In this document: one piece after another, positions 53,929 through 64,000 of the stretch | Layout: every line of letters begins with the position of its first letter | Numbering within the stretch: position 1 is the first letter of the stretch | Origin: Steroidobacteraceae bacterium | GTDB lineage: Bacteria > Pseudomonadota > Gammaproteobacteria > Steroidobacterales > Steroidobacteraceae | NCBI GenBank assembly: GCA_035720205.1 | Contig: DASTOQ010000118.1 | Coordinates: 6,546 to 70,545 of the forward strand | DNA: 64,000 bases | Reading direction: 5' to 3' | Position numbers and translations under genes: made by a program | The notes under the pieces: generated by a model | The model's database searches: none | The model's input: only the letters and a program-made list of their open reading frames with translations | Told to the model about the DNA's origin: nothing

Positions 53929-54786
53929 TTACTCCCGCGCGACACCCACGAACAGGCCGGCCGCGGCCCACTCGCGGAACCAGCGGCCCAGCATGGCGGC
54001 CAGCCGGTCCGCGCTCAGCCGGCGCCCGCGGACGGCGGCGCGCACGGCCTGTGCCAGCGTAGCGCCGGACTCGAGCGCGGCCAGCAGCCGGAACTGTGCG
54101 GGCGACTGGTCGCGCCGATACACCTGGAATGCGCGGCGGTAGACCATCGCGAACGTCCTGCGCGGCGACGGAAGTCGCGGCTTCCTCCCGCCGCGAATCG
54201 CATTCATGCAGTCGTTGGCCGGGTATCGCAACACCAGCAGGCGAAGGGCCGGGTTCATGACCAGGCGCAGGTGCCGCCACTCGTCCGCGCCGATCGCGGC
54301 GATCTCCGCCGCCGCCAACGGCTCGACCAGCGGCGCGTCGAACACGTCTTCCATGGCACGCTCGATCCGCGCCACATCCGCCGCCAACCCGCTCGCGCGC
54401 CCGCGGGGCAAGTGGTGCGCGAGGAAGTCCGGGAAGCGCGCACTCAGCCGGTTGAGGGTGCGGCAGCGCGACGGGTTCTTCGCCAGGAATTCCCGGGCGA
54501 CCCGGGCGAACGCTTCTGGTTGCAGGATGCGTCGCGTCACCGGATATTCGGCGTCCATGATCTCGAGCAGCCGCGCGTAATACATGTGCGCGTAGATGTC
54601 GAGGCGCTCGACGGACGTGAGCGACCGGGACGGCAGTACGATGGATTCGGGCGCCTTCGCCGCAACGGGCAGCAGCCGGCGCGCCCGGGGCGCACGGATG
54701 CCGCTGGCGGCGCCGTCCGGATGCATGACCACGGTCTGCATCCAGCGTTCGAGCAGGTCGAGCGACGGCGCGCTGGCGTGCGTCAT
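53929..54786 (-). CDS. DUF2063-domain protein (BufC/MbnC-like partner of the MNIO enzyme)
   Basis: The ATG at 54786 overlaps the DUF692 TGA (ATGA). 285 aa. N-terminal region LLERWMQTVVMHPDG...RLDIYAHMYYARLLE resembles DUF2063. Confidence 0.75.
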   Translation of the reverse strand: MTHASAPSLDLLERWMQTVVMHPDGAASGIRAPRARRLLPVAAKAPESIVLPSRSLTSVERLDIYAHMYYARLLEIMDAEYPVTRRILQPEAFARVAREFLAKNPSRCRTLNRLSARFPDFLAHHLPRGRASGLAADVARIERAMEDVFDAPLVEPLAAAEIAAIGADEWRHLRLVMNPALRLLVLRYPANDCMNAIRGGRKPRLPSPRRTFAMVYRRAFQVYRRDQSPAQFRLLAALESGATLAQAVRAAVRGRRLSADRLAAMLGRWFREWAAAGLFVGVARE

Positions 54787-55679
54787 GCGGCTGCGGTCTG
54801 CGGTGGCGCGCCGGCACGGAACCGGGCGGCCTTGCGAACTTCCTGCTGGAGCACCGGGAATGCGGGAATCCTGGCGTCCCACTCGAGCAGCGTGGCGCGT
54901 CCGCCCGTGCGCTCGTGCACGCGGCGATAGAGTTCCCAGACCTCGTCGATCACGCGGCCGTCGTGCGTATCGATGCAATGCGTGCCGTTGTCCGTGTGCC
55001 CGGCGAGGTGCACCTGCACCACGCGTTCGCAGGGGATCGCATCGAGATACGCCACCGGGTCGAGGTCGTGATTGCGGCAGGTCACGTAGACATTGTTGAC
55101 GTCGAGCAGCAGCGCGCAATCCGCCTCCACGGCGAGCCGCGCGATGAATTCCTCCTCGGGCATCGAGGAGGAAGCAAAGGTCAGGTAGGTGGAAGGATTC
55201 TCGAGCACCAGCGGTCGCTGCAGGTGGTCCTGGATGATGCGCACGCGCCGCACCATGTGCCGCAGACTTTCCTCGGTGTACGGCACCGGGTAGAGATCGT
55301 GGCCGTTGACGCCCGCGACCCCGGTCCAGCAGATGTGGTCGCCGAGCCAGTGCGCTTTCACGCGCTTCGCGAGCGCCGCCAGCTTGTCGAGAAAGGCGAA
55401 ATCGACAGGGTCCGTGCTGCCGACCGACAGGCAGACGCCGTGCATGGCGATCGGGTACCGTTCAGCGATCTGGTCCAGGTACCAGAGCGGGCGTCCACCC
55501 GTATCGAGAAAGTTTTCGGACAGGATCTCGAACCAGTCCATCGCCGGCCAGTGCTCGGTGATGTAACGGAAATGCGGGGTGCGCAGGCCAACGCCCAGCC
55601 CGAGGTCGGGCAGGCGCCAGCAGTTCGGCAGCGGCCGGGCGGCCATGTCGTGATCCCCTGCCATGGTCCCCGCCGTCAT
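54783..55679 (-). CDS. DUF692/UPF0276 family multinuclear non-heme iron oxidase (MNIO; MbnB/BufB-like)
   Basis: 298 aa. GLGVGLRTPHF, DWFEILSENF, YPIAMHGVCLSVGSTDP, HWLGDHICWTGV.G.NGHDLYPVPYTEE and LVLENPSTY are the hallmark DUF692 blocks. Confidence 0.9.
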   Translation of the reverse strand: MTAGTMAGDHDMAARPLPNCWRLPDLGLGVGLRTPHFRYITEHWPAMDWFEILSENFLDTGGRPLWYLDQIAERYPIAMHGVCLSVGSTDPVDFAFLDKLAALAKRVKAHWLGDHICWTGVAGVNGHDLYPVPYTEESLRHMVRRVRIIQDHLQRPLVLENPSTYLTFASSSMPEEEFIARLAVEADCALLLDVNNVYVTCRNHDLDPVAYLDAIPCERVVQVHLAGHTDNGTHCIDTHDGRVIDEVWELYRRVHERTGGRATLLEWDARIPAFPVLQQEVRKAARFRAGAPPQTAAA

Positions 55680-55723
55680 GCGCGCCGATCTGCGTGCATG
55701 ACGGCAGGGTCACGGGCTCGCGA

Positions 55724-56095
55724 TCAGCCCATGTGCGCCGGATCGACCGGCACCTTGCAGCCGCCCTTGCCCTTGCAGCTGTTCTTGCCGGCGCAGCCGC
55801 CGTCGCCGCCCTTGCAGCCGCCTTGGCCTTTGCAGCCATTCTTGCCCGCACACTCGTGCCTGGCCGCGGTAGCGCAGCCGCCCTTGCCCTTGCAGCTGTT
55901 CTTGCCGGCGCAACCGCCGTCGCCGCTCTGGCAACCGCCCTTGCCCTTGCACTCGTTGTGGCCCTTACAGATGTGCTTGTCGCCGCCGCCCTCCGCCGGA
56001 TTGGCGGATGCGACCCTGGCAAGCTCGGCGCCGGCGAGCAGACCGCCCGTCACGCCCAGCATCACCTTGCCGAAGTCCCGACGATTCATGGACAT
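55724..56095 (-). CDS. Exported 12-Cys repeat peptide: RiPP precursor (bufferin BufA2-like, 6/12-Cys class)
   Basis: Start at MSMNRRDFGKVMLGVTGGLLAGAELARVASA (56095) after GGGGGAA. The mature part is Gly/Lys/Cys-rich with two 6-Cys modules. It lies 44 nt upstream of the DUF692 gene. Confidence 0.85.
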   Translation of the reverse strand: MSMNRRDFGKVMLGVTGGLLAGAELARVASANPAEGGGDKHICKGHNECKGKGGCQSGDGGCAGKNSCKGKGGCATAARHECAGKNGCKGQGGCKGGDGGCAGKNSCKGKGGCKVPVDPAHMG

Positions 56096-56285
56096 TGTGG
56101 GTTCCCCCAAATCATTGAGTTGACGCTGAAATGACCCGAAGGGTCGGTGATTAGACCGGCCGTAGCGAGCAAATACTACGCCCGGATTGCCGGCGCAGGT
56201 CCGCGGCGTCGGCTTCTTGCGACGCAACACGCCGGCGACATTCCCAACATGGCCCGGGCGGCGCTCGGTACCATCGCGGCCACGG

Positions 56286-58514
56286 ATGAAGGTCCAGCGC
56301 CGCTTTGCTGTGATGTGGAGATCCCTGGGCCAGGCGCTGCAGCGCATCCTGCTCTCCGCGATTCCCCTGCTGTTCTTCGTGCTGCACGCCGCCGGCGTCC
56401 TGCCGCTCGAGTTCGTGCAGCGCATCGAGAATTACCTCTACGACGTGCGCGTCGGCTGGATGATGCCGAACGTCGTCGATCCGCGCGTCGTGATCGTGGA
56501 CATCGACGAGGCCAGCCTCGCGGCCGAGGGGCAGTGGCCCTGGCCGCGGCGCAAGATCGCGGCGCTCAACGACGCGCTGTTCGACGATTACGGCATCCGC
56601 GCGCTCGGGTTCGACGTGCTGTTCGGCGAGCCCGAGCGCAGCGCGGAACTGCAGCTGATCGAGGCCATCGCCAGCGGCCCGCTCGCGGGCGACACCGGGC
56701 GCCTGGTGCGACTGGAGGAGATCCGCCGCGAGCACGAGGGCGACCGCCTGCTCGCGGAATCCCTGATCGCGCGCGACATCGTGCTCGGCTACGTATTCAA
56801 GCAACGGCCCGGCCCGTCCGAGCCCGCGACCACCGGCCTGCTGCCGCCGCCGGTCACCTTCGCGGACAGCCGCATCCACGGCCACGGCTGGCTGCGGCCG
56901 CTGGGCTACGCCGCCAACCTCCAGGCACTGCAGCAGTCCGCCCCGGCCGGCGGCTTCTTCGACACGCCGCTCACCGACGAGGACGGCGTGGTGCGCAGGG
57001 TGCCGCTCTACCAGTACTACGACGGCAACCTCTACGAATCGCTCTCCCTCGGCCTCGCGCGACTCGCGCAGGGCACGCCGGCAGTGCAGTTCGCCTTCGA
57101 CGCGGGTCGCCCCGAGCGCCTCGCCTACCTCAGCCTCGGCGAGACCCGCATCCCGGTCGACGACCAGGGCGCGGTGCTGATTCCCTTTCGCGGCCCGCTC
57201 GGCAGCTTCCGCTACATCTCGGCCACCGACGTCCTGAACCAGCGGGCGCCGGCGGAGGCGCTGCAGGATGCCATCGTGCTGGTCGGCGCGAGCGCGCCGG
57301 GGCTGCAGGACGTGCGCGCGGTGCCGGTCGCCAAGGAGTACATCGGCGTGGAGGCGCACGCCAACCTGGTCTCGGGCTTCCTCGACGGCACGATCCCGTT
57401 CCGGCCGCGCCAGTCCGCGCTCGCCGAGATCCTGGCGCTGCTCGTGGTCGCGCTGCTCACGGCGCTCATCCTCCCGCGCCTGGCGCCGCTGGCCGGCTTC
57501 GGCCTGTTCCTGCTGCTGGTCGCCGCCGCGCTCGGCCTCAACCTCATGCTCTGGTCGCGCTACGGCCTGGTGCTCCCGCTCGCGGCCGTGCTGGTCTACA
57601 CGACCATCGCGGCGCTGCTGCAGCTCACCTGGGGATACTTCACCGCCACCCGCCGCCGCCAGCGCCTGTCGCGCATCTTCGGCCAGTACGTGCCGTCCGA
57701 GATCGTCAGCGAGCTCGACGCCGGCGGCGCGGAAGTCTCGCTCGAGGGCGAGAGCCGGGAGATGTCGGTGCTGTTCTCCGACGTGCGCGGCTTCACGACC
57801 ATCTCCGAGGGCCTGCAGGCGCGCGAGCTCACGCAGCTCATGAACGAGTTCCTGACGCCGATCACCGCCGCCATCCACCGCCACCGCGGCACCATCGACA
57901 AGTACATGGGCGACGCGGTGATGGCCTTCTGGGGCGCGCCGCTGCCGGATGCGGAGCACGCGGCGCACGCGGTCCAGGCGGCCCAGGCGATGGTCGCCGA
58001 GATGCGCGCGCTCAGGCCCGCCTTCGAGGCGCGCGGCTGGCCCGCGATCGAGATCGGGGTCGGCATCTCGAGCGGCGAGATGAACGTCGGCAACATGGGC
58101 TCGCAGTTCCGCGCCGCCTACACCGTGCTCGGCGACGCCGTGAACCTCGGCTCGCGCCTCGAGGGCCTCACCAAGACCTACGGCGTCAACATCATCGTCA
58201 GCGAACGGACCGTGGCGCTGGCGCCGGGCCTGAAATACCGCGAACTCGACCGCGTGCGGGTCAAGGGCAAGCAGGAACCGGTCGGCATCTACGAGCCGAT
58301 CGCGCCGGCGGACGAGCCCGCGGCGCAGCGTTTCGCGGACGCGCTCGCCTGCTACCGGGACCAGGACTGGGACGGCGCAGAGACGCTCGTCACGGAACTG
58401 GAAGCCGCCGCGCCGCATCCGCTCCACCGGCTCTATCTCGGGCGCATCCGGCATTTCCGGTCGCAGCCGCCGCCGCCCGATTGGGATGGTGTTTTCACCT
58501 TCCACGCTAAATAA
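56286..58514 (+). CDS. CHASE2-domain membrane sensor fused to a class III adenylate cyclase
   Basis: CHASE2 (VVIVDIDEASL...GQWPWPR), three TMs, then the cyclase domain (MSVLFSDVRGFTTISE, GTIDKYMGDAVMAFWGAP, YTVLGDAVNLGSRLEG). The start could be 56286 or 56313. Confidence 0.85.
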   Translation: MKVQRRFAVMWRSLGQALQRILLSAIPLLFFVLHAAGVLPLEFVQRIENYLYDVRVGWMMPNVVDPRVVIVDIDEASLAAEGQWPWPRRKIAALNDALFDDYGIRALGFDVLFGEPERSAELQLIEAIASGPLAGDTGRLVRLEEIRREHEGDRLLAESLIARDIVLGYVFKQRPGPSEPATTGLLPPPVTFADSRIHGHGWLRPLGYAANLQALQQSAPAGGFFDTPLTDEDGVVRRVPLYQYYDGNLYESLSLGLARLAQGTPAVQFAFDAGRPERLAYLSLGETRIPVDDQGAVLIPFRGPLGSFRYISATDVLNQRAPAEALQDAIVLVGASAPGLQDVRAVPVAKEYIGVEAHANLVSGFLDGTIPFRPRQSALAEILALLVVALLTALILPRLAPLAGFGLFLLLVAAALGLNLMLWSRYGLVLPLAAVLVYTTIAALLQLTWGYFTATRRRQRLSRIFGQYVPSEIVSELDAGGAEVSLEGESREMSVLFSDVRGFTTISEGLQARELTQLMNEFLTPITAAIHRHRGTIDKYMGDAVMAFWGAPLPDAEHAAHAVQAAQAMVAEMRALRPAFEARGWPAIEIGVGISSGEMNVGNMGSQFRAAYTVLGDAVNLGSRLEGLTKTYGVNIIVSERTVALAPGLKYRELDRVRVKGKQEPVGIYEPIAPADEPAAQRFADALACYRDQDWDGAETLVTELEAAAPHPLHRLYLGRIRHFRSQPPPPDWDGVFTFHAK

Positions 58515-58552: not shown

Positions 58553-59872
58553 GTGATCATCCGACTCATCCGCTGCATCGCGCTGGCGTGCGCGCTGGCA
58601 CCCATCGCCGCTGTCTCCCAGTCCGGCACGGTCCTTGCCGACGCGGAGCGGCTCATCCGCGACGGCCGCGGGGCCGAGGCGTATCGCCTGCTCGCGCAGC
58701 ACGAAGCCGCCCTCGCCGGCCAGTCGCTCTATGACTACCTCTATGGCGTCGCCGCGCTCGACGCCGGCCAGCCGCGCGCGGCCGTCGCGGCGCTCACGCG
58801 CGCGGTCGCCAACGACCCGCGCTCGGCAGCGGCGCGCCTCGAGCTCGGCCGCGCGTATCACGCCGCGGGCGAGCGCGCGGCGGCCGAGCGCCAGTTCCGC
58901 GAAGCGCTCGCACTGGGCCCGGCGCCAGGCACGCGCGCATCGGCCGAGGCCTGGCTGCGCGCGCTCGACCGGCCCGCCGCGGCGGCCACGTCCGGCTGGA
59001 GCGGAGGCTACGAGTTCGGCGCCGGCTTCGACAGCAACGCGAACGCTTCCACGGACGACGACACGTTCCTCGGCATCACGCTCAATCCCACCAATGTGGA
59101 GCAATCGTCGGCGTTCGCGACGCTCGCCGGCTGGTTCGGCCACGCAGCCGACCTCGGCGGCGGCCGCATCCGGACGCATGGCCGCATCGGCCATCGCTGG
59201 AACCCCGACGCCGACTGGGTGGACCAGACCATCGCTGCGCTCGGCACGCAGCTGCGCTTCGGCGAGGGCCCGACCGTCTTCGGCCTCGGCCTGGGAGGCT
59301 GGTACGGGCTGCTGCACGGCGACCCGCATCACTGGAGCGCGAGCCTCGACCTCTCGCTGAGCCGCAGCTTCGGCGACGGCTGGCGCGCGACGGGCCAGCT
59401 GCGCGCGGGCCAGCTGCGCTACGAGGAGAGCGAATTCCCCGGCCTGTCCGTGCTCGACATGGACCAGCTGCTGGCGGCGATCTCGCTGCAGCGCGCGGGC
59501 GATACCGGGCACTTCGGCATCACGGCGTTCCTCGGCTCCGACGAAGAGCAGGAATCCGGCTCGCCCTTCGGCAACGAGCGCCTGGGACTGCAGTTCTACG
59601 GCGGCATCCGGGACGCGGCCGGCCGGGACGTCGGCGTCCAGGTCTCCTGGCAGGAAGTCGATTTCGACGACGCGCCCGGCTTCTTCGGCGGCGTCGACCG
59701 CTCCGACAACGCCTGGTCCGCCGCGTTCACGATCGGCATACCCGACTGGCCGGTCACCGGCATGCAGCTCACGCCGCGCATCGGCTGGAGCGGCAACGAG
59801 TCGAACATCCCGCTCTACGATTACGACCGCTTCGAGGCCGGACTGACGCTCACGCGCAAGTTCCGCCAGTGA
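58553..59872 (+). CDS. TPR-containing putative outer-membrane beta-barrel protein (DUF560/Slam-like architecture)
   Basis: 439 aa, GTG start, signal peptide. N-terminal TPR-like helices, then alternating-pattern beta strands rich in G/D/N/W/Y. Confidence 0.55.
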   Translation: MIIRLIRCIALACALAPIAAVSQSGTVLADAERLIRDGRGAEAYRLLAQHEAALAGQSLYDYLYGVAALDAGQPRAAVAALTRAVANDPRSAAARLELGRAYHAAGERAAAERQFREALALGPAPGTRASAEAWLRALDRPAAAATSGWSGGYEFGAGFDSNANASTDDDTFLGITLNPTNVEQSSAFATLAGWFGHAADLGGGRIRTHGRIGHRWNPDADWVDQTIAALGTQLRFGEGPTVFGLGLGGWYGLLHGDPHHWSASLDLSLSRSFGDGWRATGQLRAGQLRYEESEFPGLSVLDMDQLLAAISLQRAGDTGHFGITAFLGSDEEQESGSPFGNERLGLQFYGGIRDAAGRDVGVQVSWQEVDFDDAPGFFGGVDRSDNAWSAAFTIGIPDWPVTGMQLTPRIGWSGNESNIPLYDYDRFEAGLTLTRKFRQ

Positions 59873-59880
59873 GGGACGCC

Positions 59881-60828
59881 ATGATGCCCCAGACCCACCG
59901 GATCCGCGCTTTCGTCGCCGCCTGCGCGGCCGCGCTCGCCTTCACCGCTGCCGCCGATGCGAAGGACGCCGGCAAGGCGCTGTTCGTCGCCGGCCAGGTC
60001 ATGCTCGAGCGCGCGCCGCCCGTCCCGCTCGCGCAGGGCGACGCGGTGCAGGTCGGCGACACGATCGCGACCGGCGACAAGTCCCGCGCGCAGATCCTGA
60101 TGAACGACGGCGCCCGCGTCGCGCTGCGCGCGAACTCGCGCTACCGCGTGGACGAGTTCAGCCTGCCCGCCTCGGTGGGAGCACCCACCCAGGCGACGAC
60201 CACGCGCGCGGAAGGCGTCAGCGTGGCGACGCTGCTGAAGGGCGGGTTCAGGAGCTCGACCGGCGCAATCGGCAAGGACGGCGCCGGCAGCTACGAGGTG
60301 CGCACGCCCATCGGCACGCTCGGCATCCGCGGCACCGACTACACCGCCGTCTGGTGCCAGGGCGACTGCGCGGACGTGCCCGCCGCGGCGCCGGCCCGAA
60401 ACGGCATGTACCTCGCGACGCACTCGGGCGCGATCGTGTTCCGCCATGGCGGGCGCGAGACCGTGGTCGAGGCGGGCCAGGCGATCTTCATCGCCGCGAC
60501 CGATGCCTTGCCCGAGCCGCTCGACCAGCTGCCCGAATGGCTGAAGACGGACGGCGCCGGTCCGCTCGTGACCGGCGGGCGCGACGACGGCAAGGGCCAG
60601 TCCGCGCTGCCCGATTTCTCGGCCACCCACCAGCCGCCCGCCGGCCAGGCGCCAACGGATTCCACGGCGCCGGACCCGTCGGATCCCGCCGGCAGGCCGG
60701 GCCTGGAGCGGCCGATCCGCGGCACCGTCGGCGGCCAGCCGATCGACCTGACGCAGGGCCAGATCGACCAGCGCAGCCCCAACAATCCGCCGCCCGGTAC
60801 GCCGTCCCAGCCTCCGCCCGGCAACTGA
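59881..60828 (+). CDS. Secreted FecR-domain protein with a Pro-rich C-terminal tail
   Basis: ATG at 59881 after GAGGGA. Signal peptide. FecR-like core (GDTIATGDKSRAQILMNDGARVALRANS...VRTPIGTLGIRGTDY). Confidence 0.7.
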   Translation: MMPQTHRIRAFVAACAAALAFTAAADAKDAGKALFVAGQVMLERAPPVPLAQGDAVQVGDTIATGDKSRAQILMNDGARVALRANSRYRVDEFSLPASVGAPTQATTTRAEGVSVATLLKGGFRSSTGAIGKDGAGSYEVRTPIGTLGIRGTDYTAVWCQGDCADVPAAAPARNGMYLATHSGAIVFRHGGRETVVEAGQAIFIAATDALPEPLDQLPEWLKTDGAGPLVTGGRDDGKGQSALPDFSATHQPPAGQAPTDSTAPDPSDPAGRPGLERPIRGTVGGQPIDLTQGQIDQRSPNNPPPGTPSQPPPGN

Positions 60829-60833
60829 GGGGC

Positions 60834-63164
60834 ATGAACCCCGGGCATCACCGGATCGCGATCGTCGGAGCCGGTCCGGGGGGCCTGAGCGCGGCGGCCC
60901 ACGCGGCACGGCTCGGGGTGGACCACGTGCTGCTCGAGGCGAGCCCCGCGCACGCGCACACGATCCAGCGCTACCAGAAGGGCAAGCACGTCATGGCGGA
61001 GCCGCCGGTGCTGCCGCTGCGCGCCGACCTGCCGTTCGAGGCCGGCACGCGCGAGACGGTGCTCGAGCGCTGGCGCGCCGGACTCGGGGCCACCGGCGCC
61101 AACGTCCGCTACGGCGCCGAGGTCACGGCGATCGCCAAAGGCGCCGACGGCTTCCGCCTCGCGCTCAAGGACGGCAGTGCGCTCACCGCCGACCACGTGG
61201 TGTTCGCGATCGGCATGCAGGGCAACCTGCGCCGGCTCGAGGTGCCGGGCGCCGACCTGCCCTGCGTGCAGTACCAGCTCGACGATCCCGACGAGTACCG
61301 CGGCGAGGTCATCGTGGTCGTGGGCGCGGGCGACGCGGCCATCGAGAATGCGGTCGCGCTGGCGGCGCAGAACGAGGTCGTCATCGTCAACCGCATCGAC
61401 GAGTTCGCGCGCGTCAAGGACGGCAACCTCAAGCTGATCCTGAAGTCGATCGAGTCCGGCCGCATCGGCTGCTACTACCGCAGCGGCGTCGCCGCCATCG
61501 AGCGCGCGCACGGCGACGGCGTGCGCCCATACGTGCTGGTGCTCAACACCGCGGACGGCGAGGCGCGCATCGCCTGCGACCGCATCATCGCGCGCATCGG
61601 CGCCATCCCGCCGCGCAAGTTCGTGGAGGCCTGCGGCATCGCCTTCCCGAGCGCGGACCCGATGGCCCTGCCCGCGCTGTCCTCGCGCTACGAGTCGAGC
61701 GTCAAGGGCCTCTACGTCATCGGCGCGCTCGGCGGCTACCCGCTCATCAAGCAGGCGATGAACCAGGGCTACGAGGTCATCGAGTACATCCTCGGCCGCG
61801 ACCTGCGCCCCGCGGACCATCCGCTGTTCGAGGAGAAGTTCGCGAAGCTGCGCTTCGGCCTCACGGTGGACGACACGCTCGGCCTGGTCCAGGAGCGCAT
61901 CCCGCTCTACCGCGAGATCAACCCGCTGCAGTTCCGCGAGTTCATGCTGGGAAGCCGGGTGCACCGCCCGGAGTCGGGCGCCACGATCTTCCGCCGCAAC
62001 GACTACACCGACACCTTCTTCGCGATCGTCGACGGCACGGTCGAGATCGAGATCGGCGAGGAGGAACCCTATCGCCTCAGGCTGGGCAGCGGCCAGTTCT
62101 TCGGCGAGATGAGCCTGCTGTCGGGACGCCGCCGCTCGGCCACGGCCTACGCGGGTCCCGGCTGCGTGCTGGTCGAATCGCCGCGGCGCGAGGTGCTGAA
62201 GCTCGTCAACTCGATCGAGGCCGTGCGCCACCACATCGACCGGCACTTCGTCATCCGCGCCATCCAGACCGCGTTCGCACCGAACGCCTCGGACGAGGAA
62301 CTCGAGGCGGTGGCGGAGCGCGCCAGGGTCAACGACTACAAGCCCGGCGCGGTGATCTTCGCCGAGGGGGCGGAGGCCGACACCCTGCATCTCATCCGCA
62401 GCGGGTCGGTGGCCGTGTCGCGCAACATCGGCGGGCGCGAGATCGTCACCTCCTACGTCGCCGCCGGCAATTACGTCGGCGAGATGGGGCTGATGGGCAG
62501 GACGCGCCGCGCCGCCACCGTGCGCGCCAATGTCGCGACCGAAACCGTGAGCCTCTCCGCCGCCGATTTCGACGCCTTGCTGGCGAGGAACCCCGAACTG
62601 CGTCAGAAGGTGCAGGCCCTGGTGCGCAAGCGCCTGGCCGAGAACGCGCGCATCTCCGCGCAGCCGCAGACCGGCGACATCGTCTCGTTCCTGATGCAGC
62701 AGGGCCTCGGCGAGGCGACCGACGTGCTCTTGATCGACGAGTCGCTCTGCATCGGCTGCGACAACTGCGAGAAGGCCTGCGCCGGCACCCACGACGGCAC
62801 TTCGCGCCTCGACCGCGAGGCCGGGCCGACCTATGCGCGCCTGCACGTGCCGACCTCCTGCCGCCACTGCGAGGACCCGCACTGCATGACCGACTGCCCG
62901 CCGGATGCGATCCGGCGCGCGCCGAACGGCGAGGTCTACATCCGCGACAACTGCATCGGCTGCGGCAACTGCGAGCGCAACTGCCCCTACGGCGTGATCC
63001 AGATGGCAGCAGCCGAGGCGGAGGGCCCGAAGAAGGCCGTCAAGTGCGACATGTGCAAGGACCTCTCCGGCGGGCCCGCCTGCGTGCGCGCCTGCCCGAC
63101 CGGCGCTGCGATCCGCGTCGGGCCCGAGAGCCTCATGGACCTGGTGGCGCGCGTGGAGCGATAG
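60834..63164 (+). CDS. Fusion protein: FAD/NAD(P)-dependent oxidoreductase + two cyclic-nucleotide-binding domains + four-motif 4Fe-4S ferredoxin (DmsB/NrfC-like)
   Basis: ATG at 60834. IAIVGAGPGGLSAA and VVVGAGDAAIENA Rossmann motifs. Two CNB signatures (FFGEMSLLSGRRRSATA and YVGEMGLMGRTRRAATV). Four Cys clusters (CIGCDNCEKAC, CRHCEDPHCMTDCP, CIGCGNCERNCP, CDMCKDLSGGPACVRACP). Confidence 0.85.
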   Translation: MNPGHHRIAIVGAGPGGLSAAAHAARLGVDHVLLEASPAHAHTIQRYQKGKHVMAEPPVLPLRADLPFEAGTRETVLERWRAGLGATGANVRYGAEVTAIAKGADGFRLALKDGSALTADHVVFAIGMQGNLRRLEVPGADLPCVQYQLDDPDEYRGEVIVVVGAGDAAIENAVALAAQNEVVIVNRIDEFARVKDGNLKLILKSIESGRIGCYYRSGVAAIERAHGDGVRPYVLVLNTADGEARIACDRIIARIGAIPPRKFVEACGIAFPSADPMALPALSSRYESSVKGLYVIGALGGYPLIKQAMNQGYEVIEYILGRDLRPADHPLFEEKFAKLRFGLTVDDTLGLVQERIPLYREINPLQFREFMLGSRVHRPESGATIFRRNDYTDTFFAIVDGTVEIEIGEEEPYRLRLGSGQFFGEMSLLSGRRRSATAYAGPGCVLVESPRREVLKLVNSIEAVRHHIDRHFVIRAIQTAFAPNASDEELEAVAERARVNDYKPGAVIFAEGAEADTLHLIRSGSVAVSRNIGGREIVTSYVAAGNYVGEMGLMGRTRRAATVRANVATETVSLSAADFDALLARNPELRQKVQALVRKRLAENARISAQPQTGDIVSFLMQQGLGEATDVLLIDESLCIGCDNCEKACAGTHDGTSRLDREAGPTYARLHVPTSCRHCEDPHCMTDCPPDAIRRAPNGEVYIRDNCIGCGNCERNCPYGVIQMAAAEAEGPKKAVKCDMCKDLSGGPACVRACPTGAAIRVGPESLMDLVARVER

Positions 63165-64000
63165 TGCAGGAGTCGCTGCTCGCCTACCGCCGCATGCGCT
63201 ACCTCTGGGTGGCCGGGGCGCTCGCCGCCGCCGCGATCCTCGCCTACGCCCTGCACCGCCCGCCCGAGGCGCCGGACGGCGGCACCTGGCTCGGCTACAC
63301 GCTGGGCGGCGTCGCCGCGGCGCTGGTGCTGCTGCTCGGCGCCTTCGGCATCAGGAAGCGCGCCTACGCCTCCACGCTCGGCAGCGTGCGCGGCTGGCTG
63401 TCGGCGCACGTCTACCTGGGGCTCGCGCTGGTGGTGGTCATGACGTTGCACGCGGGTTTCCAGTTCGGCTGGAACGTGCACACGCTCGCCTACCTTCTGG
63501 TGTGCGTAGTCGTCGCCAGTGGCGTTGCCGGCGTGTGGTTCTACCTGCGCTATCCGGAGCAGATGAGCCGCAACCGCGCCGGCGAGACGCGCGACCAGAT
63601 GCTGGCCGAGCTCGCCGACCTCGACCGCCTGTGCGCGAAGCAGGCCGCGGCGCTCGGCGGCGAATTCCCGGACGTGATCGTGAGCGCGCGCGACCGCACC
63701 GCGCTCGGTGGCGGCGCCATCGCCGTCCTCGCCGGTCGCGACCGCTCGCGCGTGGTGCTGCCGGGCGCGCATGGCGCCGGCGGCACGGTGCTGCCGAATC
63801 CCGGGCAGTCGCGCCTCGCCGACTGGCTCGGCCACGAGCTCGCCGAGAGCACCGACGGCGAGCGTACGCGCCTGATCCACGAGTTGATGGCGCTCGTCCA
63901 CACGCGCCGCGGCTTGCTCGAGCGCCTGCGCCGCGACGCGCAGATCCGCGCCTGGCTGGACGCCTGGCTGTACGTCCACGTCCCGGCCACCTGCGCGCTG
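63164..64000 (+). CDS. Polytopic membrane protein (possible membrane anchor/cytochrome-b-like partner); 3' end cut by the window edge
   Basis: Not in the track because it runs off the right edge. The GTG at 63164 overlaps the TAG (TAGTG). Manual translation gives VQESLLAYRRMRYLWVAGALAAAAILAY... with at least three TMs carrying His (SAHVYLGLALVVVMTLHAGF). The minus ORF 62987..63979 is its antisense shadow. Confidence 0.6.
   Translation, partial: MQESLLAYRRMRYLWVAGALAAAAILAYALHRPPEAPDGGTWLGYTLGGVAAALVLLLGAFGIRKRAYASTLGSVRGWLSAHVYLGLALVVVMTLHAGFQFGWNVHTLAYLLVCVVVASGVAGVWFYLRYPEQMSRNRAGETRDQMLAELADLDRLCAKQAAALGGEFPDVIVSARDRTALGGGAIAVLAGRDRSRVVLPGAHGAGGTVLPNPGQSRLADWLGHELAESTDGERTRLIHELMALVHTRRGLLERLRRDAQIRAWLDAWLYVHVPATCAL

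Follow-up and report, generated by a model that had tools for sequence, protein, structure and literature searches.

A flavoprotein, cyclic-nucleotide-binding and ferredoxin fusion as the probable NAD(P)H-linked subunit of a transmembrane multihaem-cytochrome chain in Steroidobacteraceae and other Proteobacteria

The DNA analysed here (the window) is a stretch of 64,000 nucleotides from a Steroidobacteraceae bacterium (assembly GCA_035720205.1, contig DASTOQ010000118.1, positions 6,546 to 70,545 of the forward strand). Near its end lies a gene for a single polypeptide in which a flavoprotein domain with the fold of thioredoxin reductase (TrxR), two cyclic-nucleotide-binding (CNB) domains and a four-cluster ferredoxin domain follow one another. 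This gene, referred to below as the fusion, is gene 4 of a tightly packed plus-strand operon. Gene 5 encodes a protein with five transmembrane (TM) helices and continues past the end of the window. No terminator-like sites were found between positions 55600 and 64000. The fusion, its domains and its 5-TM partner are laid out as follows.

60834..63164, plus strand: flavoprotein / two CNB / four [4Fe-4S] fusion, a single open reading frame (ORF) of 776 aa, ATG at 60834, TAG at 63162-63164
60852..61769, plus strand: TrxR-fold flavoprotein domain (residues 7-312; Pfam), two-dinucleotide-binding, with GAGPGG (FAD) and GAGDAA (NAD(P)H) and without CxxC
61965..62243, plus strand: domain A for binding cyclic nucleotide monophosphate (cNMP), residues ~378-470; Pfam cNMP_binding; phosphate-binding cassette (PBC) FFGEMSLLSGRRRSATA
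62334..62591, plus strand: cNMP-binding domain B (residues 501-586), the best Pfam cNMP_binding stretch; PKA-like PBC GEMGLMGRTRRAATV
62727..63116, plus strand: four-cluster [4Fe-4S] ferredoxin domain (residues 632-761), 16 Cys; Fer4_11 and related models
63164..64000, plus strand: 5-TM partner, candidate transmembrane dihaem b; the window ends at about residue 279 of 294

The start of the fusion is well placed, with a GAGG-type ribosome-binding site just 5' of an ATG that lies 5 nt past the stop of the preceding gene, and close homologues begin at the same residue (M(N/D)PGHHRIAIVGAGPGG). All Pfam matches cited for its domains exceed the gathering scores: Pyr_redox_3 (4e-28, residues 10-297) and Pyr_redox_2 (1e-24, residues 7-312); cNMP_binding in two stretches (1.7e-34; 118.1 bits against a gathering score of 27.5); and Fer4_11 (1.1e-12, residues 671-758; 48.4 bits against 26.2), with other Fer4 models matching at about residues 630-760. 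An earlier note, made from the DNA sequence, had described these three modules by eye and suggested their annotation with hidden Markov models, which the Pfam matches now bear out. The two N-terminal dinucleotide-binding motifs that it reported are present (GAGPGG at residues 12-17, GAGDAA at 164-169), as are its two complete cassettes, both canonical (PBC-A, FFGEMSLLSGRRRSATA, at residues 422-438; PBC-B, YVGEMGLMGRTRRAATV, at 547-563). Its four CxxCxxCxxxC(P) clusters need some correction. There are indeed four groups holding 16 Cys (C639/642/645/649, C676/679/684/688, C707/710/713/717 and C738/741/750/754), but the strict spacing occurs in groups 1 and 3 only, while group 2 reads Cx2Cx4Cx3CP and group 4 Cx2Cx8Cx3CP. 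Both of these spacings are usual in four-cluster proteins.

The flavoprotein domain was also called thioredoxin-reductase-like in that note, and this holds for the fold and not for the chemistry. In the AlphaFold2 (AF2) model the domain has a confidence (predicted local distance difference test, pLDDT) of ~80-95. The top Foldseek match is the bacillithiol disulfide reductase YpdA/Bdr (7a7b, 1e-23), followed by ferredoxin-NADP+ reductases (FNRs) of the TrxR type (2zbw, 3ab1, 3lzw, 6gar and 5ygq, 1e-21 to 1e-22); true thioredoxin reductases rank lower (~1e-19 to 1e-20). Conservation was read from 42 full-length representatives of 50%-identity clusters (the family-wide figures below) and from 43 close homologues. 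Family-wide, both dinucleotide motifs are at least 93% conserved, whereas the CxxC disulfide is absent: the stretch equivalent to it in TrxR, LPCVQYQ, contains Cys144 alone, with a conservation of 2%. Over residues 1-330 the conservation of any Cys stays at or below 58%, so that the flavodomain has no conserved Cys. YpdA/Bdr enzymes carry a conserved active-site Cys in the N-terminal FAD motif, and the GAGPGG of the fusion lacks it. The scores agree, with 66.1 bits against a cut-off of 343.45 for TrxB (TIGR01292) and 109.6 bits against 339.9 for YpdA/Bdr (TIGR04018), and both identities were rejected. From the missing Cys and CxxC and from NCBIfam scores far below their cut-offs, the domain is classed on its sequence as a TrxR-fold NAD(P)H flavoenzyme and not a disulfide reductase. 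Arg187 (88% conserved family-wide) and Arg193 (74%) stand at positions which we take to be those where E. coli TrxR binds the 2'-phosphate of NADPH, and they hint at NADPH as the substrate.

TrxR-type FNRs reduce ferredoxins. With these enzymes (B. subtilis YumC, 3lzw; C. tepidum, 3ab1) and YpdA/Bdr (7a7b) the flavodomain shares a two-Rossmann FAD/NAD(P)H fold without CxxC, at Foldseek E-values of 1e-21 to 1e-23, template-modelling scores of 0.6-0.75 on the target and an identity of ~20%. They differ in that theirs are free-standing proteins of ~330 aa that act on soluble ferredoxin or on bacillithiol disulfide, whereas the fusion has a four-cluster acceptor in cis, with the CNB domains between, and scores far below the family cut-offs.

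The CNB pair aligns to the tandem CNB domains of PKA-R and PKG and to CRP in a profile search of the PDB. In the close homologues both cassettes are invariant in their signature residues (Gly-Glu and Arg-x-Ala). Family-wide, conservation is 95-98% for the Gly-Glu of PBC-A and 65-67% for the Arg of both cassettes.

All 16 Cys of the ferredoxin domain are invariant in the close homologues and at least 95% conserved family-wide. The earlier note had found this part typical of the beta subunits of DMSO-reductase-family enzymes, and it is of the same four-cluster, Fer4_11 type, but belongs to no specific equivalog. Its NCBIfam matches are partial and all below cut-off (the AegA N-terminus, DmsB, HydN, FdnH, NrfC and HmcB; 63.8 bits against 214 for DmsB, 61.8 against 260 for HydN, 59.2 against 335 for FdnH), and membership of a specific beta-subunit family was rejected because these scores fall so far short. 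Profile matches in the PDB are to HycB3/4 (7qv7), HycB (7z0s) and ArrB (6cz7). By its sequence the domain is thus a generic four-cluster wire that stands outside any specific beta-subunit family. With HycB, HydN, DmsB, FdnH, NrfC, HmcB and the N-terminus of AegA/YgfT it shares 16 Cys in four groups and the Fer4_11 match, and in AegA and YgfT the four-cluster domain is likewise joined to a flavoprotein. The fusion differs from all of these in being cytoplasmic, without a twin-arginine translocation (Tat) signal, and in having no partner of the molybdenum/tungsten bis-pyranopterin guanine dinucleotide (Mo/W-bisPGD), hydrogenase or GltD type; the CNB insertion is unique to its family. Among the conserved neighbours of the fusion there is no catalytic gene for a Mo/W-bisPGD enzyme or a hydrogenase. 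The core idea of the earlier note, that a beta-subunit-like ferredoxin is wired to a fused flavoprotein which takes the place of the Mo/W subunit and is controlled by CNB domains, fits everything found here, as far as sequence can tell.

That note had regarded the fusion as unusual, and suggested a survey of how widely the exact architecture is distributed. It is one 776-aa ORF and is real, but it is not unusual. A search of 5.8 billion proteins gave 6,118 matches at E ≤ 1e-10; the best 120 of these are all 765-820 aa long, with at least 93% coverage and the same Pfam set, and come from NCBI, JGI, ENA and Logan assemblies, where the usual name is ‘cyclic nucleotide-binding domain-containing protein’. 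Scanned exhaustively with HMMER, the representatives of 50%-identity clusters yielded 931 clusters at E ≤ 1e-30. Full-length relatives keep the three-part order down to 33% identity. Among contigs taken from one GTDB genome per species, at least 596 stretches encode a relative, the closest among the matches listed being from a metagenome-assembled genome (MAG) of Steroidobacteraceae at 95% identity. The hosts are Steroidobacteraceae, Woeseiaceae, Lysobacterales, Alcanivoracaceae (Alcanivorax), relatives of Colwellia (Cognaticolwellia) and some Alpha- and Betaproteobacteria, and include the isolates Tahibacter soli, Pseudomarimonas arenosa, Cognaticolwellia sediminilitoris and Alcanivorax sp. 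1008. Most are aerobic or facultative heterotrophs. Since the best 120 matches, from independent assemblies, share length and Pfam set, and relatives at 33-37% identity keep the order, the fusion is not an artefact: a mis-assembly, a missed stop or a frameshift is refuted by an uninterrupted architecture in thousands of independent assemblies, isolates among them, and is left with practically no chance. One relative, P0131 (1212 aa), is enlarged by several long insertions, each of roughly 100-250 aa, that lie inside its CNB domains and between them.

Nor is the architecture itself novel. Pyr_redox followed by tandem CNB domains was catalogued as the ‘Bact_Pyrredox’ CNB subfamily (Kannan et al. 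2007, PMC2246266; row 13 of the table). Shared with that entry are tandem CNB domains with canonical cassettes, C-terminal to a pyridine nucleotide-disulphide oxidoreductase domain, and the cassettes of the window protein are a close match to the subfamily consensus, GEMGLISGRRRGATVRA. The entry is a table row alone, in which the Fe-S domain, the partners and the function go unmentioned. The copy in the window is in no way exceptional within this family, which is large and was catalogued long ago but has never been characterised.

The interest lies rather in the system to which the fusion belongs, which is probably a transmembrane conduit, gated by cyclic nucleotides, from NAD(P)H to multihaem cytochromes, and which includes a new candidate for a haem-b subunit. 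The first part of that system is the 5-TM protein, a translationally coupled candidate for the membrane partner, which the earlier note had not seen. Its GTG start (63164) overlaps the TAG stop of the fusion in the sequence TAGTG, and its N-terminus, MQESLLAYRR, agrees with the full-length homologues P0271 and P0272. In 69 of the 74 genome loci with at least 1 kb of sequence downstream of the fusion, spread over Gamma-, Alpha- and Betaproteobacteria, the partner is the next gene, at a median gap of ~27 nt. Its family comprises more than 4,000 ‘hypothetical proteins’ and has no Pfam model. In alignments of 68 and 40 sequences five His are invariant: H82 and H96 on one helix and H272 and H286 on another, each pair spaced i/i+14, together with H106. 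The AF2 model (pLDDT 85) has five TM helices, with a 140-aa insert between TM4 and TM5. A positive-inside count places the N-terminus and the insert in the cytoplasm, so that H82 and H272 would lie towards the cytoplasmic side of the membrane, and H96, H286 and H106 towards its periplasmic side.

In cytochrome b of bc1, in NOX and in ferric reductases, two stacked b haems are bound by two His pairs, each on one TM helix with its members ~13-14 residues apart; in NOX and ferric reductases, electrons from a cytoplasmic NAD(P)H flavoenzyme cross the membrane by way of these haems. The partner shares with all of these the two bis-His pairs on two TM helices (H82/H96 and H272/H286), and this pattern and the topology suggest that it works like a transmembrane dihaem b. 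Membership of a known family of cytochromes b or of the ferric reductase domain (FRD)/NOX type is not supported, since the partner has no match to PF01794 or to these families in sequence or fold, and has five TM helices and not the six-TM FRD fold. It differs from FRD/NOX also in its 140-aa cytoplasmic insert; in its dehydrogenase, which is a TrxR-fold flavoprotein with Fe-S clusters and not of the FNR fold; and in its proposed output, which is to multihaem cytochromes and not directly to O2 or Fe. One protein of the representative library, P0126 (1110 aa), holds the flavo-CNB-FeS protein and the 5-TM partner, with both His pairs, in a single predicted ORF. The joined frame is explained by a natural Rosetta-stone fusion or by the loss of a stop codon.

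The remaining genes of the cluster lie past the end of the window and were read from related loci, such as L001 (95% identical) and L002, with counts over 80 proteobacterial loci. After the TM gene comes a protein with a cytoplasmic FHA domain, one TM helix and ten CxxCH motifs (a decahaem c; 63 of the 80 loci), then a HbpS-like lipoprotein of 650-720 aa (52 of 80), then a protein of ~605 aa (47 of 80) and then a giant decahaem of more than 1,200 aa with ten CxxCH motifs and LVIVD repeats (45 of 80). Absences of these genes fall mostly at contig ends. The ~605-aa protein has no match in Pfam, NCBIfam or the PDB and is possibly an outer-membrane barrel, to judge from its signal-like N-terminus and C-terminal aromatic residue. 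A CNB-[4Fe-4S] protein, a multi-TM protein and a deca- or nonahaem c stand in a row in 63-70 of the 80 loci. Partial and weak matches within the cluster are to HmcB (4.7e-13), TmcA (8.5e-06) and the DmsE family (8.5e-05).

The order is permuted in three Betaproteobacteria, Usitatibacter among them (L068, L072 and L075), where the FHA-decahaem, the HbpS-like protein, the barrel, the giant decahaem and an extra tetrahaem of 440-470 aa come before the fusion, which is last. In a Pseudomonadales MAG (L081/L082; P0163, 35% identical) a 304-aa gene without a Pfam match, presumably the TM homologue, and a multihaem gene lie 8 kb from the fusion; the ~8-kb interruption holds, on the opposite strand, a HXXSHH protein, a PSCyt3/PSD protein with planctomycete-type cytochrome domains and a sulfatase-like gene. 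The giant decahaem (L002 18643-22328 and homologues) has a local match (7e-19) to ExtM of the selenite/tellurite-reduction operon of Geobacter. In P0141 (1134 aa) and P0129 (970 aa) the FHA domains are N-terminal on the flavo-CNB-FeS protein instead of on the decahaem. A contig labelled as a MAG of Klebsiella pneumoniae (L017, CAMAQZ010000018.1) carries the whole cluster at 65% identity, in a form typical of Steroidobacterales- or Woeseiaceae-like genomes, and is probably mis-binned or mislabelled.

What the flavoprotein domain contributes to this core can be seen from a second architecture in which it is replaced. Among the relatives are stand-alone proteins of ~450-510 aa with the CNB pair and the Fe-S domain but no flavoprotein. 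A metagenome scan with the single protein P0240 gave no match, whereas a scan with the profile of these relatives retrieved 44 soil-metagenome loci (L084-L139), which proved to carry a form fused to NuoG. In these loci one gene encodes a NuoE-NuoF fusion (2Fe-2S_thioredx, Complex1_51K, SLBB and NADH_4Fe-4S) and the gene after it a 723-aa protein with a NuoG-type N-terminus (Fer2_4, NADH-G_4Fe-4S_3 and Fer4_Nqo3) followed by two CNB domains and the four-cluster domain. Next come a homologue of the 5-TM protein, 24-40% identical and with the same two H-x13-H pairs, and a TM-anchored multihaem cytochrome without FHA. Some of these loci also have a homologue of the giant decahaem on the opposite strand. 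The TrxR-fold domain is absent from all 44 loci and the NuoEF/NuoG module from all 80 proteobacterial ones. On sequence, then, two unrelated NAD(P)H-dehydrogenase modules are grafted onto one core of CNB-FeS protein, TM protein and cytochrome. Of all the evidence, this module swap argues most strongly that the N-terminal domain of the window protein serves to couple NAD(P)(H) to the core; it speaks, too, for the CNB pair as an integral and ancestral control element of that core. The variants P0126, P0141 and P0129 point in the same direction.

The messenger to which the CNB pair may respond is suggested by the first three genes of the window operon.

56187..58514, plus strand: CHASE2 sensor with class III adenylate cyclase, operon gene 1 (Pfam CHASE2 1.9e-56, Guanylate_cyc 8.3e-19)
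58553..59872, plus strand: TPR and SlipAM-like (Slam-type) outer-membrane beta-barrel protein (Pfam TPR_16 1.6e-07, SlipAM 3.5e-07)
59869..60828, plus strand: FecR-domain protein, predicted periplasmic (Pfam FecR 5e-10)

The stop of the SlipAM-like gene overlaps the start of the FecR gene by 4 nt. The catalytic domain of the cyclase is closest to CyaB of P. aeruginosa (3r5g, 6e-34) and shares with it a Lys (IDKYMGD) and a Thr (YTVLGD), at positions which we take to be those that specify ATP in class IIIb enzymes. Because of this likeness, the local messenger in the window lineage is probably cyclic AMP (cAMP) made by the CHASE2 cyclase. There is a precedent in Sinorhizobium meliloti for a CHASE2 cyclase with FecR and TPR envelope proteins. 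That the HbpS-like lipoprotein encoded downstream could be a substrate of the Slam-type protein is pure speculation. Divergent from the cyclase operon, at 53929-56092 on the minus strand, lies a bufferin-type cluster for a ribosomally synthesized and post-translationally modified peptide. Its precursor is Cys-rich and 122 aa long, with a Tat-like signal (RRDFGK) and two CxGxNxCKGxGGC repeats, and matches NCBIfam BufA2 at 1.6e-10, below cut-off and at about twice the model length; the cluster also holds MbnB/DUF692 (1.5e-102) and DUF2063.

The fusion is probably the NAD(P)H-linked input, on the cytoplasmic side and gated by cyclic nucleotides, of a dedicated electron-transfer chain that crosses the membrane and probably the whole envelope. 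With the cofactors presumed to be bound and the proteins presumed to be in contact, NAD(P)H would reduce FAD in the TrxR-fold domain, and the electrons would pass from FAD along the four [4Fe-4S] clusters to a haem b on the cytoplasmic side of the 5-TM protein (His82/His272), across the membrane to a haem b on the periplasmic side (His96/His286) and on to the TM-anchored periplasmic decahaem c that bears the cytoplasmic FHA domain. From the decahaem the HbpS-like protein, the putative barrel and the giant decahaem may lead them on to the cell surface. Placed between the flavin and the Fe-S wire, the tandem CNB domains would allow cAMP to switch the flux on or off, and the FHA domain would perhaps provide further gating by phospho-threonine signalling. 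In the window lineage the cAMP would come from an envelope sensor of CHASE2, FecR and Slam-like proteins. The larger claim, that the cluster is a self-contained, cAMP-gated export of electrons from NAD(P)H to the surface which bypasses the quinone pool, and so a bacterial functional analogue of NADPH oxidase made up of a TrxR-fold (or NuoEFG-type) dehydrogenase, a four-cluster wire, a new dihaem membrane protein and ~20 c-haems, is put forward tentatively, as a possible reading that is likelier to be wrong than right.

Several points weigh against this picture. Haem binding by the 5-TM protein is proposed from its His pattern, in a family known from sequence; the protein has no Pfam match at E ≤ 0.1, nothing meaningful in NCBIfam and no match in a PDB profile search, and Foldseek against the PDB gives a best E of 0.5, with NarI at rank 32. 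The Fe-S domain has a pLDDT below 50 in its AF2 model, too low for structural inference or for cofactor distances. Since the cassette Arg is kept in about two-thirds of the family clusters, cNMP gating may not hold across the whole family, and the trio of cyclase, SlipAM-like and FecR genes accompanies the fusion in ~14 of the 80 loci, all of the Steroidobacteraceae or Woeseiaceae type. In two loci (L059 and L064) the fusion gene has no partners within the sequence at hand. These two loci would suit a stand-alone cytoplasmic cAMP-regulated reductase, of a YpdA-like thiol type or a ferredoxin type, with functionally unrelated neighbours, as would the fact that YpdA/Bdr is the best match of the flavodomain in both NCBIfam and structure. 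Such an enzyme is very unlikely, given the low YpdA score and the lack of conserved Cys described above, the overlap of stop and start with the TM gene, the adjacency in 69 of 74 loci, the same adjacency in the NuoEFG lineage and the joining of the two proteins in P0126. The dense signalling content (two CNB domains, FHA on the cytochrome or the flavoprotein, a CHASE2 cyclase and FecR) raises a different alternative, a redox-sensing or signalling device and not a bulk conduit, in which cAMP and phospho-threonine signals are combined with a small electron flux, or with the redox state of the cytochromes, to govern some other process. HbpS-type proteins are redox-stress sensors, and a HbpS-like protein is encoded in the cluster. 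Yet the cluster has no conserved output domain (kinase, DNA-binding or GGDEF), and ~20 c-haems, four Fe-S clusters and a full dehydrogenase module that is swapped for NuoEFG elsewhere would be excessive for a sensor, a reading that we consider decidedly improbable.

The direction of flow is a separate matter. That the net flow is outward, from NAD(P)H to the periplasm or surface, we infer from energetics, regulatory load and the heterotrophic hosts, and hold at slightly less than an even chance. The same complex could run inward, with periplasmic or extracellular electrons (from H2- or formate-linked cytochromes, Fe(II) or cathodes) reducing cytoplasmic NAD(P)+. Hmc/Tmc-type complexes of sulfate reducers move electrons inward, and the cluster has the weak HmcB and TmcA matches; NuoEF-type modules such as those of the second architecture can also run inward, being reversible in other enzymes. 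The gene trio is found moreover in the Fe(II) oxidiser Ferrigenium, whose authors weighed electron uptake (bioRxiv 10.64898/2026.01.22.701106). Against this, inward flow to -320 mV would have to work against the inside-negative potential and needs a very low-potential donor or energy coupling, and no such component is seen. The mostly aerobic or facultative heterotrophic hosts would also fit it poorly, and the heavy CNB and FHA gating seems better suited to a costly, dissipative reaction. Inward flow is accordingly judged unlikely. Outward flow is favoured because it is downhill and runs with the membrane potential, because the hosts are mostly heterotrophs and because a dissipative reaction explains the heavy gating.

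A gene trio of matching description has been noticed before. In the ptdABCDEFG cluster the trio ptdEFG was noticed and its function left open (bioRxiv 10.1101/2023.11.21.568154), as it was for the ‘NHC’ cluster of Ferrigenium, with a FHA-nonahaem, a 5-TM protein without motifs and a [4Fe-4S] protein (bioRxiv 10.64898/2026.01.22.701106). The published descriptions share a CNB/[4Fe-4S] protein, a 5-TM or ‘ferric reductase-like’ membrane protein and a deca- or nonahaem cytochrome, and the Ferrigenium cytochrome bears FHA as in the window-type cluster. The ptd cluster differs in having a pentahaem, a porin, the flavohaemoprotein-like PtdC and a tetrahaem, where the window-type cluster has the HbpS-like protein, the ~605-aa putative barrel and the giant LVIVD decahaem. 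PtdC was considered as a split copy of the flavodomain of the fusion and rejected, being flavohaemoprotein-like, while the uet cluster of Tenderiales and the systems of a peat multihaem-cytochrome survey turned out to be of another kind. The TrxR-fold domain, the His pairs and the cyclase link are unmentioned in both the ptd and the Ferrigenium papers, and in full-text searches no paper turned up that describes the TrxR-fold input, the NuoEFG swap, the link to the cyclase or the pattern of His pairs in the TM family.

The logic of the chain is shared with Hmc/Tmc/DsrMKJOP and MtrCAB-type conduits, in which a cytoplasmic Fe-S protein, a membrane b-type protein and a periplasmic multihaem c are followed by a barrel and a surface decahaem. 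The window-type cluster differs in that its matches to these systems are weak and partial and a quinone-linked subunit is not evident, and its NAD(P)H input and its cNMP and FHA control have no counterpart in them.

If the proposed chain is correct, a gene cluster that is very common in soil and sea would specify a path for electrons from NAD(P)H in the cytoplasm to multihaem cytochromes of the periplasm and surface, one that is independent of quinones and gated by a second messenger. It would add a new input module for extracellular electron transfer and a new family of haem-b membrane proteins, and would be the first instance in which the direct target of cAMP is an electron wire and not transcription. 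As isolates carry the cluster, the model is directly testable. Should the self-contained export reading also be true, this would be the first electron-transport chain whose wire is switched directly by a cyclic nucleotide, and the cluster would become a candidate for the NAD(P)H-dependent activity by which aerobic heterotrophs among the bacteria carry out extracellular reduction or form superoxide.

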